Below, piece after piece: positions 44,501-50,500 of a stretch of 64,000 bases of DNA. Source of the stretch: Podarcis gaigeae (Eukaryota). Position numbers: made by a program. The stretch lies in the NCBI GenBank assembly GCA_964106915.2, contig OZ066914.1; one strand, 5' to 3'. Numbering within the stretch: the stretch's first letter is position 1; each line of letters starts with the position of its first letter.

Positions 44501-47500
44501 ATTATATAACTGCTACTTACCCCCCAAAGCTTAATTAAGTCTGCAAATCAAAGAGACCCTGTGGAAGATGTTGCTCTGCTCACTGCTATATTCCAGTTCC
44601 CCAAGAAACTGGAGTATTCCAACAAGAACAAAGATTTCTGAAAGGCCACCTTGTTCATACAGATGTGCGAGCAAGGGAGCCGCTGTGAGCTAACATGAAA
44701 ATATAAAAGCAAACTTAATATTTGTTGCTCATTCATAAACATGCAACATACTTGAAATACTTAATACCAACCATAAGTAAACCATATATAGTACTCAACA
44801 GCAGTGATAACTGAATTTTAACAGCCCCAACAAAATGAATACCATGGATCCAAAAAGCAACACTGTTTTGCCTGAAAGCTTTCCCTTGCATTCTCCCAAA
44901 AAACCACCCTCGAGAGTAGAGGGAACCTCAAGAACAGTATGGGATGGGTGGTGAGGAAATGCAGTTGAACGGGGAGATCGGTAAGCTGCCTTGTGCAAGT
45001 AGAAGTCCTTTCAACTTATGTAAGACAAAGTCTGGATCCAAAGCTTTACTTTTATCTCATGCTGATAATGGTCACCAATTACTGGTAGCAACAGCTCTTG
45101 AAAGTTTTGCTTTAATAAAATTATGAGTAGTAGTAGCTTACTTAAACACACTATTTTTATACAACCTAAATATAGCTGAGGAAAGTATCACCATTTCTGG
45201 GATGTTTGACTGAATCAAGAAGTGTTTCAAAAAGTACAATTAGCAACCCAAAGTACATCTTTCCTCAATCGTCTTTATAAAAATAATTCACATCATTCAG
45301 TACTAAGTGTTCACTAACAAAGAATGTAAGGACTAAGAAATAAATACTAGTATTTTATTGTTAGAACACAAATCTCCAAGTTATACAAATTAGATGGATC
45401 AAACAGCATTGCCCAACATCAAAAAGGTAGAAAAGATAGGCCCAGATCCATACTGGAACTTAACGTCCCTACTACAAGCAAGTATTCAAAATGAAGGCTA
45501 TAGTCAGTTGTAAGCACCAGTAAGCGCCTGCCATGTCCTTAAGGGAATGAGCTGGATTGCACTATAAACATGTAGAATTCTGCTCCTGTCCCTCCCAAAG
45601 GCTATATAGTTCTCCCCCAATCTAGTGGGAAATTTCCAGAGTGGTATGCAAAGAGAGGTTATGTAAAAAAATATAAATGTAATCCAAGCATTCATCTTAA
45701 ACTGCAGTAAAGTTCAATTCTAGTCTGCTACATTCTATTCCTGTTGCCCTTGCATTCCAGAATCACATTTGTGCTACATTTTAGCTTCCAACATCAACCT
45801 ACAAGATTGATATCATTATTTGGAAGTACTGACCATTTAAAACCACAATACCAACAAATCCAGAATTCGTCTGGATATTGACCTGATTTCAGAGAAGCTG
45901 GGAAGGTGAAGTAAGCCACTGAAGTTAAGCTCTCTCTTGTTTGTGAAAGGCACATTACATCATAAAAGCAATTTACATAAAATGTGCTACCAAAACACTG
46001 AAGGATATTGTCTCATGTGGCTTCAATCACAACCAACTCTCCTTAAGAATAATCAAGTTCACGGCAGGGTTCTTTTAAAATAAAAAAAGCATATGCTTCC
46101 CTGTAATTTGTTTCCTAGTAAATACTAACGGTGATTGTGAAAAATGGTCGTTCTATTAGATTATATTTTAAAAGCAAATTCTGATGCAGATGATCTGCCT
46201 TTTTTCCAGGAAAGTTGACACAGTAATGCCAAAGCAAAACATGGCAAAACTGCCATACAGTCACTTTCAGACAGTTCAACAAGCTTCAAGGTAACCAGAA
46301 TATGTACCTTCACACAGTTTTAACAAGTGCCATAATAGCTCTGAGCAGTCATGATCTTTTGCAATGAATGTCTTGCAGAGTAACATTTAAAACTTTCAGC
46401 GTCTAAAACTTATATAGGATTTTGGATGTGACATTCCTGGTTGAATAAGCCATGAAGGAGTATCTGGTGCAAGTATCTTGTGTTTATGCTGGTTTTAGTA
46501 CTTTGAGCCCAGGCTCTTTAACTCAGTTTCCCATTATGTCTGAAATTGGGAGCACTGGTTTAATGTTGATTTACTAACCAGCATCTGAAATCTGATTTGC
46601 AAACTTGTATTAAACCTCAATTCCCCATTTCAGAGGAAAGTGTGACTTAAAAGCAGCTTGGGCTGAACCTGGCACACATGGGGAGGCAGGAATAAGCTTG
46701 ATGCTTATTCTTGCTTAATGAACTATGGTTTATTAAGAACTTTACCTCTGAGCCTGCCATATGTTAATAAACACTCATGAAGCATAAGTGATTAACATAT
46801 AACTAGAGTAACATGTGAGTCCATGTATAATGAAGCCCTAATGCTTCAGTTTGTTTTCCTGCTCTAGTCAGACTCACCTTTTCCAAAGTTACATATTTTT
46901 TATGATGTTTTTTTCTGATCTACCCACATAAAATAGCTTTGTAAGCTATTACTGCACCCATATTTTAGGTAGCTATCACCTCATGCTATTCACTGAGCAT
47001 TTTTCGGATGGGAATATCAATCAGGGAAACTAAACTGCTTGGCAGTGTCTCTAAGCACACTGTAGAAGCAAACTGAATTCAGTGGGGTGGGGAAGTAAAC
47101 AGAATTAAAAAAAAAAAACAGTTAAATATATCGGCAAATGTCTTACTGCAGTGGTTGCAGAACAATGCCACTAGCAATTACATTACTAAATTAATACCCA
47201 CCACCATATTAACAGTGCAATTCCACTGCCTGAAAATTCAAATTACCACCGTTCACAACCTTCTAATAATCTCTGTCTGGAGAGACCTTCCATACTTGCT
47301 TAAACTGAAATCTATTATTCCTTCTCCAAAGAAAAAGTTAGATCAAAGTCTCCAAAACACTTAATAAATCCAGGTTGAAGACATCTGTGCCACTTTCAGA
47401 CAAGAGAACACCATCTAGATGGAACAATCCTGGAGACTCTGGGACAAGTGAATCGTGTTTGATTATAATCCCTCCAATACGTTCCATAAAACTGCAGATT

Positions 47501-50500
47501 TCCCGATTTACTCTCTTCCTGCTTTTCTCCATAAATTCATGGGACATATCTTGGTTCCATGCTTTGCGGGGTACAATATTAGACCAGACAAGGATGCTGT
47601 TCTTGAATGTTATCTTAATATGTATTATATCTTTCTTCATTTGTCTTATGATATCATAATCTGCGTATGTCCCAAGGTCATTTCCTCCTAGATGGATCAC
47701 CAATATATCAGGATCTGTTAGGCGCCGCCGTGTGTGCAATAGGCTGGGTATCAACTGATCCCACGTCATGCCACTCTTTCCTAGCCAATGTAGTTTGGCA
47801 TCCTCCAGTCGAATGCCCAACTGTGGGCCAAAGCTTCTTTCAAGTGCTCTTTTTTCTGCCCAGAAAACGTAAGAATGACCACATATCCATACCTGTTTCT
47901 GCTTTCTTCTGCCATCTGCTATTAAGAGAACAAACATACATTAATGCTTCATAAATTTTGTGGCCCAAGCACCTCCTGAAAACTTTTTTCAGTGTTGTCT
48001 GAATTATTCCATGTAAAAATCAAAACATGAGACACCTCTATCTTAAAATACATGGCATAATAATCCATAAAGTCAACTCTTTATTTGAAGATTGGTGTGT
48101 AAAGTTTACAGGTAAAAATGCCTGCATTCAAGTTATAAGATCAATGGAAAGGAATGCATGCTCATGTACCCTTTTGATCAATCTTACAAGAGCAAGTGAA
48201 AATATCTTTTCTAAATAAAGTTGCTAACAATCCATTTAGATCTTGATAAAGTATATTGGTTTGATAGATGTGCTCTACTCAGAATGAAGTTCTTCCAGAT
48301 TTTTTTCCAAAATTAACAGAAGGTCAGGAGCAGAAGTCCATACCTTTCAAGCAGACCAAAAAGAGAAAGCTTCGACTGTTAAGAAAGCCCAGGGAGCAGA
48401 GTTATACTTCTCTATTAAATCTTATGTAGAAATTTATGTAACCATTTCCACGCTTTGCCTGACAGGATTATTTTTTGTTGCCACATGACACCTCCATTTC
48501 TAAAAATTCATTTTCTGAACAAAACGCTAGAAAGCTTGCACTAGGGATAGATTTTCTATTACTGCCCTGAAAGAATAGTAATTTGATCTCTTCTAAACAA
48601 TGTAGACCTCCAGTATTAAACTACAGAAAATTATCAGTTTTACATTTCCCCTGCAATTTTCAACTTGTTTTTGTTTATGAAGTCTTTTCCTGACATGCAA
48701 TCCAGTCAATTTTATAATTGTAAAAATGGTTTTATTGTTTTTAGAGTTTGCATCTTTTGTATTTGATCTTATTGTACATAGCTTCAATAGCATATGGCTC
48801 TGAAGCAGTCCATAGACCTGTAAAATAACAATAACGATAATAGTAATAGCTCAACAAAAGTGATGATAATTTTTGGAGTTCAAATATATTCTATGTGACA
48901 TTGGACAAGAAAATAGTGGATGATGATGTGGCCAGGGATCTTGCAGTCTTTGTGCTAAATAATAATGTGCGTTCTAAATTATACTCTTTGAGGGTTTCAA
49001 GTTTTTGCTTATCACTAGAGGCAACAATACGTTCAGATTCTTAGGACTTCTCTCCTGAACAGGTCTTTTAGTTCTGGGCTAAGCAGTAAAACAGGTGAGC
49101 AAGCATTTCAGCACCCAAGAATTACACTGAATGTGAAACAGAAGAAAGCTGTTGATTGGCACCTTTAGCTTACAGATCAACAAACTTCACAAGATGAAGA
49201 TCTGGTGATGGTAGCTGGGCTACTTCATGAACGGCACTTCTACACTTGGATCACACACAAAAAGAGTGGGGAAAAATTGCAGTTTGGGAGTGTACTGTTA
49301 AACATGATGGGAGTCAAGGATAGCTTGGTTCGCTTCCAGTTAAGCACGGAACTCAACTGTATTTTCAGTGCTGACTCGACAACAATCAAGGCTTCTTCAC
49401 ATCATCCTTAGGTACTGTTCTCCATCCTTGGCTGACATAGCAAAAGGCTTGTAAATAGACTGTAGTACTGCATCTTGGCTGCAGTTACTCCACCCTGGCT
49501 ACAGGCCTCTTCATTCTTGTGCCCAAATGATGCTGCTGTTCAAGTTCCTGGTACATTCAGTGGTGTGATCAAATGAAACCCACCCCTTTCTCATCATTGA
49601 AAAGTTCATGACTACAAGATCATTCCCCCAGTTAATAAGAACATAATAAATATGTAGGCTTAAAAAAAAAGAGGCTTCGCGCTTTAATTTATCTTGGACC
49701 TGCAAACATAATATTTTCAAACACATGTGAACTTCATTACATAAAACAGTTCAATAAAAAAGAAGATTGTTGAACAGTGAAAAGAGTTAATGATTGTTCC
49801 ATCAATCAAACAATGGAGAAAAAAATGAACATCTAGCATGGTTAAAGTGTAATGTAACTGATGTTTTTGCCACGAGGCACCTAATGCCCATCTCAGAAAT
49901 AGGTGTATTTGGATTTGCTTTATGCTGTATATTTAGAATGAGCAATCTCATTACATTCGGAAAAAGACACTTTCAAAGCTACTCACCCACAGTAGTTACA
50001 GGAGGCTGAGAAGGGTAGTGTTGTGTGCTAGTTGTTGGTGGAAATGATCCGCTAGGGGGAGGGTAAGGATAGCTTGGGTAACCACTTGAAAGGGGAGGGG
50101 GAGAAAGACACAGTGTTATGCATTCTTTAGTTAATATTTCCATTCATAAGCAATTTTTTTTAACGTTTAAACAATTTATAATAGACAAACAGAATTTAAA
50201 AAAGAGCCACTGATGCAGATATAAACGGTCAGAGTAATATTCAAGACCATGAGAAATTTGTTGTCATCCATAGATTTCAGAGGTATCAATGTTTTAATCA
50301 ATGTTATTCAGATATGTATAAATAAATTTCAAGTTCCCTGATCAAAGTTTCTTCACATTTGTGGATTAAAGCTGAAGACAGGTAGAGGCACTCAGTCTAA
50401 TTATTCATGGTTCATTCTGTTAGCAGTTAACAGGTTTGTACTTTGTTGCATTATTTTCATTTGAAAAGGTCTATGTTGCCTTGGTGGTTTCATTTACAGA

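Follow-up and report, generated by a model that had tools for sequence, protein, structure and literature searches.

TSG101 is a subunit of ESCRT-I and recognizes ubiquitinated cargo as well as P(T/S)AP motifs in budding viruses (PMC8232796, PMC7232412). Its neighbouring paralogue UEVLD (UEV3) is one case in which a UEV domain is joined to an enzyme-like partner, as in the alligator model P0038, which consists of UEV, Ldh_1_N and Ldh_1_C. The OSK domain of Oskar, which has an RNA-binding role, is likewise an SGNH-type fold without catalysis fused to another domain, although no specific sequence relation to it was seen here. OSK is cited as "a non-catalytic SGNH protein" in PMC3905857. The same paper describes the ORF1 protein of the zebrafish L2 element ZfL2-1 (PDB 4c1b), a catalytically active esterase which lies at the 5' end of the LINE behind a coiled coil. 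In this protein the replacement H282S abolishes hydrolysis while active-site mutants still bind liposomes, and two residues, a His lying four positions ahead of the Asn of block III (H191) and a Ser that follows strand 4 (S228), are reported to be conserved only in transposon esterases (PMC3905857). In addition, the ORF1 of canonical CR1 elements in vertebrates codes for an esterase (PMC13343379), and in the Ngaro elements of Xenopus, such as DIRS-53_XT and DIRS-54_XT, an SGNH ORF follows the recombinase (PMC9210276).

The window, that is, the whole stretch of 64 kb analysed from Podarcis gaigeae, is the LDHA/TSG101 locus of this lacertid lizard and contains an open reading frame for an SGNH-like domain. 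No published description of an SGNH-bearing TSG101 isoform or of its domain was found in a literature search.

The reading frame and its position in TSG101

The ORF lies on the minus strand at 47338-47937, comprises 199 codons (199 aa) without an internal stop and has an ATG of its own at 47937. Its translation contains the motif string quoted in a preliminary description, which had placed the domain at 47338..47915 without giving a strand; at this upper bound the shorter splice form begins, whereas the frame itself extends to 47937. The domain had also been called orphaned, which does not hold, since it lies in TSG101 intron 7, on the strand of the gene, as an alternative last exon. The features are as follows.

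61378..61419, minus strand: coding part of TSG101 exon 1 with the start codon (61419), in a CpG-rich block
56709..56793, minus strand: TSG101 exon 2, UEV domain (tblastn)
55905..55970, minus strand: TSG101 exon 3, UEV domain (tblastn)
55316..55479, minus strand: TSG101 exon 4, UEV domain (tblastn; Pfam UEV, E 4e-26 with the exon alone)
54693..54819, minus strand: TSG101 exon 5, end of the UEV domain and start of the proline-rich region (tblastn)
52197..52263, minus strand: TSG101 exon 6 (mapped to Podarcis proteins, borders checked)
49987..50084, minus strand: TSG101 exon 7, proline-rich region, ending in phase 1
47916..47935, minus strand: pyrimidine tract and tandem acceptor (sequence; X1 and X2 models one residue apart at the junction)
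47341..47918, minus strand: alternative last coding exon of TSG101, SGNH-like domain (tblastn, sequence, Pfam PF13472)
47338..47340, minus strand: stop codon of the alternative isoform (sequence)
46729..46734, minus strand: candidate poly(A) signal with a presumed role, the first AATAAA past the stop, 604 nt downstream
39440..39642, minus strand: canonical TSG101 exon 8, coiled coil; competing acceptor, same donor, phase 1
38257..38550, minus strand: open frame with the canonical Vps23-core exon, bounds of the frame and not of the exon (Pfam PF09454, E 1e-17)

Exons 1-7 map to Podarcis proteins at 93-100% identity, AG/GT is present at each of the eight exon borders and the phases agree, and the separate exon lengths add up to 1224 nt or 408 codons. 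The SGNH exon matches the Podarcis TSG101 isoforms P0018, P0020 and P0021 at 96-97% identity over 193-197 aa (tblastn). The exon 7 donor (49986-49985) is common to the SGNH exon and canonical exon 8, and the acceptor of the SGNH exon is in frame with it. This acceptor consists of two AGs three bases apart (47920-47916) directly after the pyrimidine tract, as the preliminary description had indicated; the longer form begins at 47918 and the shorter at 47915, and the tandem acceptor accounts for the predicted isoforms of 409 aa and 408 aa. The GC content of the exon is 0.42, that of the flanking intron 0.36 and that of the other TSG101 exons 0.36-0.52, so the domain is only roughly as AT-rich as its host. 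The predicted SGNH isoform has neither the coiled coil nor the Vps23 core, and we infer that it cannot enter ESCRT-I. It is very probable that TSG101, in a predicted transcript, uses the ORF as an alternative coding exon at its 3' end, and that this exon is under selection.

The length of the frame by itself is suggestive: 199 open codons were reached in none of 300 shuffles of the AT-rich stretch 40000-54000 (maximum 173), but they were reached in 23 of 200 trials when the entire window was shuffled in blocks. A Pfam search, which had been proposed as a check, gave the family PF13472 (Lipase_GDSL_2, E 2.4e-4), yet at 22.1 bits, below the gathering cut-off of 32.9 bits, and an NCBIfam search of the ORF gave no match; some relatives pass the PF13472 cut-off, such as P0190 (42.7 bits) and P0064 (42.4 bits). 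Judged by sequence comparison, the homology of the ORF to other proteins is far beyond chance.

Conservation in amniotes and search for a parent element

Twenty-three predicted proteins of about 408 aa from 21 amniote species match the ORF at 70-98% identity (E 1e-82 to 1e-124); they are 23 of the 47 hits of a search for longer proteins, and all are automatic NCBI/RefSeq gene models. The 408/409-aa models, named TSG101 isoform X1/X2, consist of a UEV domain, a proline-rich linker and the SGNH domain, and Pfam UEV is present in 22 of the 23. Models such as those of Podarcis muralis (P0021), Anolis carolinensis (P0028) and Trichechus manatus (P0039) have the same architecture and the same exon, with identities of 96-98% in Podarcis and 70-93% in other species. 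They occur in squamates, turtles, crocodilians, echidna, wallaby and manatee; none from birds, amphibians or boreoeutherians is among the 47 hits, an absence which is weak evidence in a word-based search. Beyond lacertids, in comparisons of the lizard with turtle, crocodile and mammals, identity in the SGNH part is 71-82% with 0-2 gap columns and its length kept, and an alignment of 20 sequences has 89 invariant columns out of 195; identity in the UEV part of these proteins is 88-97%. Neutral sequence is not expected to remain alignable or open across the amniote span.

No parent element was found around the domain. Among 87 open frames of at least 52 codons at 40000-54500, 86 had no Pfam match and the remaining one was the SGNH ORF itself, and among 136 open frames of at least 75 codons in the rest of the window the four Pfam matches were LDH, UEV, the Vps23 core and a chance CART match. 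At Pfam sensitivity these 87 and 136 frames thus hold no reverse transcriptase (RT), RNase H, endonuclease or tyrosine recombinase. Furthermore, no split direct repeats (A1 ... B1 A2 B2) were seen, only short chance-like pairs, and self-BLAST gave no hit within 1.5 kb of the SGNH exon. These results agree with what the preliminary description had read from the sequence, and its suggestion of domestication stands: an intact SGNH-type domain, kept by selection with no parent element around it, is well supported.

Catalytic residues and possible role of the domain

With a profile built from 17 relatives, 3578 representatives were found at E<=1e-3, so that the SGNH family to which the domain belongs is a very large one in animals. 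Residues were counted in 30 TSG101-linked domains and 207 other family members. The block I Ser (G-x-S) is present in 29 of the 30 TSG101-linked domains, the remaining one being truncated, in 181 of the 207 others and also in the window. The oxyanion-hole residues, block II Gly and block III Asn (G-x-N-D), are each found in 30/30 TSG101-linked domains. The His position of block V (D-x-x-H), in contrast, is Leu in 30/30 TSG101-linked domains and His in 163/207 others, and the block V Asp is Asp in 21 and Asn in 9 of the 30. In addition, a new His two residues ahead of the Asp is invariant in the TSG101-linked domains (30/30), where the others have mostly Arg (123/207). The median pI of the domain is 9.39. 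The frog retroelement-linked copies retain the catalytic His, as does the SGNH domain of fish cold-shock-domain proteins. Neither the membership in TSG101 nor the loss of the catalytic histidine had been noticed in the preliminary description.

Since the zebrafish L2 esterase, also a basic protein, binds acidic phospholipids independently of its active site, it is proposed by analogy that the presumed SGNH fold of the TSG101 isoform may now be a non-catalytic module for binding a membrane or ligand, a role to be regarded as possible and tentative. If the fold is such a module, the isoform would put the UEV domain, which binds ubiquitin and P(T/S)AP, on membranes or ligands outside ESCRT-I, where it might regulate the clients of canonical TSG101 or compete for them. 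Counting against this role, the invariant Ser, Gly and Asn over such a time have no obvious need in a pure surface-charge binder.

The same residues bear on the alternative that the domain is still a working hydrolase whose general base would have moved to the new His. In its favour are the invariance of Ser, Gly and Asn (29-30 of 30) and that of the new His, where other members mostly have Arg, and long retention of the oxyanion-hole residues suggests a pocket in use; however, the Asp is replaced by Asn in 9 of 30 domains, and ZfL2-1 loses hydrolysis on loss of the block V His alone (PMC3905857). A hydrolase with a relocated base is unlikely.

Source of the exon

The position corresponding to ZfL2-1 H191 is His in 232 of 237 domains (30/30 TSG101-linked, 202/207 others) and that corresponding to S228 is Ser in 234 of 237 (30/30 and 204/207), the positions being assigned by aligning P0190, a member of the family, pairwise with 4c1b; both residues of this pair are absent from yeast IAH1 (3mil) in its alignment. 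In the frog protein P0213 a Phage_integrase domain (tyrosine recombinase, 318-479) precedes the SGNH domain, to which the ORF is 36% identical over 180 aa (E 9e-39), and the N-terminus of P0010 aligns to the P0213 recombinase. The retroelement pieces that precede SGNH in frog family members are tyrosine recombinase or RT/RNase H, and the SGNH domain is on the C-terminal side in all five predicted proteins with retroelement Pfam pieces (P0213, P0212, P0204, P0143, P0144). A retroelement-type origin of the exon is probable. The preliminary description had named Ngaro. The domain is homologous to the recombinase-linked ones and has the same His/Ser signature as the Ngaro-like SGNH ORF, compared here by way of frog P0213; as the actual source Ngaro is plausible but less secure, because fish cold-shock-domain proteins are slightly closer, the neighbour-joining placement has a bootstrap value of 49/100 and the nearest solved structure is that of an L2 element, and its chances fall somewhat short of even. 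The other parts of a Ngaro element, namely RT/RNase H, recombinase and split direct repeats, were not found in the window.

Those fish proteins bear on the alternative of a cellular source, in which exon shuffling or a retrocopy would have brought in the exon from a cellular SGNH gene; the candidate is the gene ancestral to the fish cold-shock-domain/SGNH genes. The closest non-orthologous relatives are host-like fish CSD/CSDE1 proteins (1300-2000 aa, si:dkeyp-121d4.3 and similar; no paper was found under this gene name in a literature search), with identities of 41-44% against 34-40% for retroelement-linked members. In neighbour-joining the TSG101 clade stands beside the fish clade, and all the retroelement-linked members are in a separate 85-member clade in which it is not nested; moreover, of 25 long relatives none has RT or recombinase domains and 10 have CSD/CSDE1. 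However, the sister position is found in just 49 of 100 bootstraps, and the sharing of signature columns with the TSG101 clade is nearly even: the fish-type clade shares 69, the frog clade 60 and the remaining members 58, and the exclusive columns number 8 versus 6. The fish domain also has the transposon-type His/Ser pair and is also C-terminal, though in another host gene, and may be a parallel capture. A cellular source is unlikely.

CR1/L2-type LINEs are the dominant retrotransposons of amniotes, and their ORF1 esterase might have been the source instead of Ngaro. The sole PDB match of a 108-sequence profile is the ZfL2-1 esterase 4c1b. Many relatives of 300-650 aa end in an esterase preceded by a variable N-terminal region without annotation (53 of 119 N-terminal regions are singletons), an arrangement which PMC3905857 describes for esterase ORF1 proteins. 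The N-terminus of P0103, the closest catalytic relative, is basic and of low complexity, and esterase ORF1s are known in canonical vertebrate CR1 (PMC13343379). The 4c1b match, however, is weak and at profile level (E 8.6e-5), with none for the window protein alone, and the esterase comes after, not before, the RT, RNase H, recombinase or integrase piece in 5/5 relatives with such pieces. Furthermore, ORF1 lies at the 5' end of a LINE and is the first to be lost on 5' truncation. A LINE source is judged quite unlikely.

An independent gene within the intron, transcribed from a promoter of its own and translated from its own start codon, would agree with the ATG at 47937 and with the turtle model P0005 (Carettochelys), a separate uncharacterized protein of 230 aa with a different N-terminus. 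It is made very unlikely by the 23 models in 21 species that join the SGNH domain to the UEV exons and by the acceptor and phase, which match exon 7 exactly; in addition, the residues upstream of the acceptor are translated pyrimidine tract, shared with four unnamed genomic ORFs. A neutral intronic relic wrongly spliced in by gene predictors would fit the sub-threshold Pfam score and an isoform known from automatic models alone, but is extremely improbable with an open frame of identical length at 70-98% identity in 21 species across amniotes.

For the favoured reading, that of an alternative TSG101 exon, retroelement-derived and now a non-catalytic binding module, the chances as a whole are somewhat better than even. 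Before the amniote radiation a retroelement copy with the esterase as its last ORF, Ngaro-like, would have been inserted in sense orientation in the TSG101 intron, and the esterase ORF with a downstream poly(A) signal would have been captured as a terminal exon; the terminal position of the Ngaro esterase would suit such a capture. Further, but decidedly unlikely, the fusion of a membrane-targeting retroelement esterase to the UEV head, which binds late domains and ubiquitin, might have made a pseudo-enzyme isoform that acts outside ESCRT-I as a decoy or sensor for clients recruiting TSG101, among them retroelements and enveloped viruses, and that was later lost in several lineages.

If the favoured reading is true, reptiles and some mammals have a conserved isoform in which the recognition head of TSG101 is kept and the ESCRT-I assembly region is swapped for a His-less retroelement-type esterase fold, where UEVLD has a lactate dehydrogenase fold of host origin, and ESCRT biology would have a branch that has not been described before. 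Such an isoform would further be a rare example in which the domesticated part of a retroelement is an accessory enzyme and not a gag, integrase or transposase. The data bring together one SGNH family in three contexts, namely the frog copies linked to a recombinase, the fusions with cold-shock domains in fish and the exon in TSG101, and so offer a concrete system in which to ask what is bound by the esterases of Ngaro and LINEs.

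A predicted alternative last exon in TSG101

The minus strand of the window carries an uninterrupted open reading frame (ORF) at 47338..47937, whose 199-aa translation contains all the motifs quoted in the preliminary description. It lies in intron 7 of TSG101, on the gene's own strand, with exon 7 roughly 2 kb upstream. The neighbouring gene on the plus strand is LDHA, in which Ldh_1_N and Ldh_1_C were detected exon by exon, and the parts of TSG101 are placed as follows.

Features of TSG101 in the window
61.4 kb, minus strand: exon 1
54.7-56.8 kb, minus strand: UEV exons
near 38.3-38.5 kb, minus strand: Vps23-core exon

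LDHA and TSG101 run towards each other, and near 36-37.5 kb about 1.5-2 kb separates their 3' ends. Two GC-rich blocks (0.51-0.57), at 20001-24000 and 60001-62000, coincide with the 5' end of LDHA and that of TSG101.

Compared exon by exon with Podarcis wall-lizard proteins, TSG101 exons 1-7 show 93-100% identity and the SGNH exon, that is, the ORF, 96-97%. The locus is that of a reptile and not of a human. Exon 7 ends at 49987 in phase 1 with a canonical GT donor, and 5' of the ORF a pyrimidine tract is followed by two AG acceptors three bases apart, which open the exon at 47918 and 47915 and both keep the frame, so that the domain does begin almost exactly at a splice acceptor, as had been proposed. 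AG and GT dinucleotides and matching phases are present at each of the eight exon borders, and in the shorter form the exons total 1224 nt (408 codons), the longer form having three more bases; the match to database isoforms of 408 and 409 aa was obtained from the per-exon alignments and this arithmetic. The exon 7 donor also serves canonical exon 8 (39642-39440), in the same phase, and therefore the SGNH exon and exon 8 are alternative choices for a single donor. Near 46.7 kb, 604 nt past the ORF stop codon, an AATAAA is a candidate poly(A) signal for the alternative form.

None of 300 shuffles of 40000-54000 reached 199 open codons; when the whole window was block-shuffled, 23 of 200 trials did, because the window has GC-rich blocks. 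The length of the ORF is thus unusual within its AT-rich surroundings but not decisive, and the decisive evidence that the ORF is real is homology. A search for longer proteins gave 47 proteins out of 955 candidates, and 23 of them are models named TSG101 or similarly (380-808 aa, 70-98% identity over 88-99% of the ORF), all but one (22/23) with a Pfam UEV domain. These models come from 21 species, namely lacertids, a monitor, geckos, iguanians, snakes, three turtles, two crocodilians, echidna, wallaby and manatee. In addition, 7 of 17 matches in a near-length search are ORF-only sequences (71-83% identity), one of which is named and belongs to a fourth turtle. No bird, amphibian or boreoeutherian isoform was found among the 47 proteins of the longer search, which is weak evidence of absence because that search was word-based. 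One of the models, P0038 (Alligator sinensis, 808 aa), joins a UEVLD-like UEV and LDH part to the UEV of TSG101 and to the SGNH exon, and is probably a read-through of adjacent genes.

The SGNH part is 91-98% identical to that of Podarcis within lacertids and 71-82% beyond them, with 0-2 gap columns; for the UEV part of full-length sequences the identity is 88-97%. Across 20 sequences 89 of 195 SGNH columns are invariant, and pairs of a mammal and a sauropsid share 69-84% identity. The amniote lineages split more than 300 million years ago. A frame kept open at constant length and at such identity over amniote time implies, on comparative grounds, that the exon is under purifying selection.

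The SGNH domain and its active site

The ORF gave a weak match to the GDSL/SGNH family PF13472 in Pfam (E 2.4e-4, 22.1 bits, below the 32.9-bit cut-off) and no match in NCBIfam, and a single-sequence PDB search with the window protein gave only chance-level matches (3las, 2o1m). Rfam, tRNA and tandem-repeat scans yielded nothing bearing on the SGNH exon. A profile made from 17 relatives detected 3578 cluster representatives at the threshold of E<=1e-3, 576 of them at <=1e-30. An Atlas look-up gave generic SGNH clusters only. Domain instances that spanned 150 or more of the 208 profile positions (226/233) were aligned, giving 237 with the frog matches added.

The best PDB matches of the 17-sequence profile were yeast IAH1 (3mil, E 4.5e-5) and 4c1b, the ORF1 esterase of the zebrafish L2 element ZfL2-1 (E 3.5e-4). 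A cellular esterase of the PAF-AH/IAH1 type was considered as the closest kin. With a 108-sequence profile the IAH1 match was gone and 4c1b was the sole match (E 8.6e-5), and the cellular type was rejected as the closest kin. P0190, a family member of the catalytic type, likewise matched only 4c1b in a plain pairwise PDB search (E 0.013). H191 and S228 of that esterase are described in PMC3905857 as conserved only in transposon-encoded esterases. In the pairwise alignment of P0190 and 4c1b the family His at position -4 relative to the block III Asn falls on H191 and the family Ser on S228; the His is present in 232 of 237 domains and the Ser in 234 of 237, including 30/30 of the TSG101 group for both. 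The Texim genes of platyfish (PMC4021074) are a candidate named relative.

The 30 TSG101-linked domains are a sharply separate group, since they have at least 70% identity to the window sequence and everything else has at most 44%, and the group was monophyletic in 100 of 100 neighbour-joining bootstraps. They retain the SGNH Ser (29/30, one being truncated), Gly (30/30) and Asn (30/30). At the block V histidine position, however, all 30 have Leu, whereas 163 of the 207 other domains have His. The block V Asp is Asn in 9/30, and the residue two positions before it is His in 30/30 of the group as against mostly Arg in the others (123/207). In ZfL2-1, replacement of the block V His alone ends hydrolysis, as stated in PMC3905857. 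By analogy with this mutant, the Leu in place of His would make canonical catalysis by the TSG101-linked domain unlikely; the new invariant His may compensate for the loss.

Relationship to retroelements

No match to RT, RNase H, recombinase, integrase or gag-like domains was found in 87 open frames near the exon or in 136 elsewhere in the window, and no repeats flanking the exon were found in the window; both agree with the preliminary description, which had reported no RT/RNase H or tyrosine-recombinase ORF nearby and no split direct repeats. The window does contain other repeats. An interspersed repeat of about 360 bp lies at 60268-60632, 61904-62266, 12601-12927, 20705-21062 and 57623-57861, the first two copies being inverted (96% over 363 bp) and lying on either side of exon 1 of TSG101 with its CpG-rich promoter block. 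Furthermore, a self-complementary, MITE-like repeat of about 135 bp occurs in five copies with 74-91% identity.

Palindromic repeat of about 135 bp in the window
4793-4925: copy
13901-14036: copy
16429-16558: copy
17936-18069: copy
37714-37841: copy

The longest open frame of the window (212 codons, 51153-51788, minus strand) lies in TSG101 intron 6, with overlapping frames on both strands at 50917-51818; it matched nothing in Pfam, occurs once in the window and may be an effect of a locally GC-richer block.

Most relatives show the SGNH domain alone, and RT or RNase H pieces were seen in 2 of 113 proteins of up to 760 aa and in none of 25 longer relatives, 10 of which have cold-shock domains. 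A search seeded with a frog member gave 16 proteins, among them P0213, named 'Tyr recombinase domain-containing protein' in UniRef, with a sub-threshold Phage_integrase match (318-479, E 5e-4) immediately before its SGNH domain. This domain and the window ORF align over 180 aa with 36% identity (E 9e-39). In another frog protein, P0010, the corresponding place is occupied by a recombinase fragment, and the other retroelement pieces among the 16 are one RVT_1 and one integrase core with a chromodomain. Several frog copies share 96-97% identity among themselves, which fits a family with recent activity. In 5/5 proteins carrying retroelement pieces the esterase lies C-terminal to them. The same order, with the esterase last, is found in Xenopus Ngaro (gag, RT/RH, YR, then SGNH, according to PMC9210276), whereas in LINEs the esterase is ORF1. 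A recombinase hidden in the N-terminal regions of relatives of 300-650 aa was also considered and was rejected, as these have no shared domain: all-against-all BLAST of 119 such regions left 53 singletons beside one fish cluster of 38 members, two of 6 members and a few that were smaller.

Mean identity of the TSG101 clade is 0.41-0.44 to P0103 (an unnamed relative of catalytic type) and to the long fish proteins with cold-shock domains (CSD) and a C-terminal SGNH domain, and 0.34-0.41 to the retroelement-linked members. Neighbour-joining places the clade beside the fish clade with 49/100 support; of 118 conserved columns it shares 69 residues with the fish type, 60 with the frog clade and 58 with the rest, and the exclusive shared columns are 8 for the fish type versus 6 for the frog clade. 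With this support and these near-even counts, the fish type is no more than a candidate sister group of the TSG101 clade. The claimed resemblance to Ngaro hydrolases stands as homology to recombinase-linked frog SGNH domains, and Ngaro is a plausible source, the fish CSD type being slightly closer in identity.

Those fish and unnamed proteins (P0041-P0061, P0065-P0097) are long CSD/CSDE1 proteins ending in the same SGNH type; in some models 3-6 SGNH copies follow one another, and one model also has PRY/SPRY. They may be an independent second case in which a host has put the family to use. Moreover, three uncharacterized proteins on three chromosomes of Anolis sagrei (P0062-P0064, 357-443 aa) have a common N-terminal region and a catalytic-type SGNH domain, and are 63-65% identical among themselves and about 40% to the window, so related catalytic copies occur in a squamate too.

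Proposed origin and role of the isoform

A full-text search of the published literature found no description of a TSG101 isoform with an SGNH or esterase domain, nothing relevant on a domesticated Ngaro hydrolase, and nowhere the fish gene name of the si:dkeyp-121d4.3 type. The SGNH isoform is present in automatic annotation and appears not yet to have been described in print. It may have originated from a sense-oriented retroelement copy, with the esterase as its last ORF, which would have been captured as a terminal exon together with a downstream poly(A) signal.

The predicted isoform keeps the UEV domain and the proline-rich linker of TSG101, and the esterase-like domain replaces the coiled coil and Vps23 core. 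The latter two build the ESCRT-I core and, since both are absent, the SGNH isoform should not assemble into ESCRT-I. The TSG101-linked domains are basic (median pI 9.39). Even with a mutated active site, the ZfL2-1 esterase retains its binding to acidic phospholipids and liposomes, as reported in PMC3905857, and by analogy the esterase-like domain may act as a binding module, which would bind membranes or another ligand. PMC5478143 links ESCRT to LINE retrotransposition and cites a paper whose title reports a block of late-domain function by an N-terminal fragment of TSG101. The isoform would bring the head that binds ubiquitin and P(T/S)AP to a membrane or ligand without involving ESCRT-I, and could act as a competitor of canonical TSG101.
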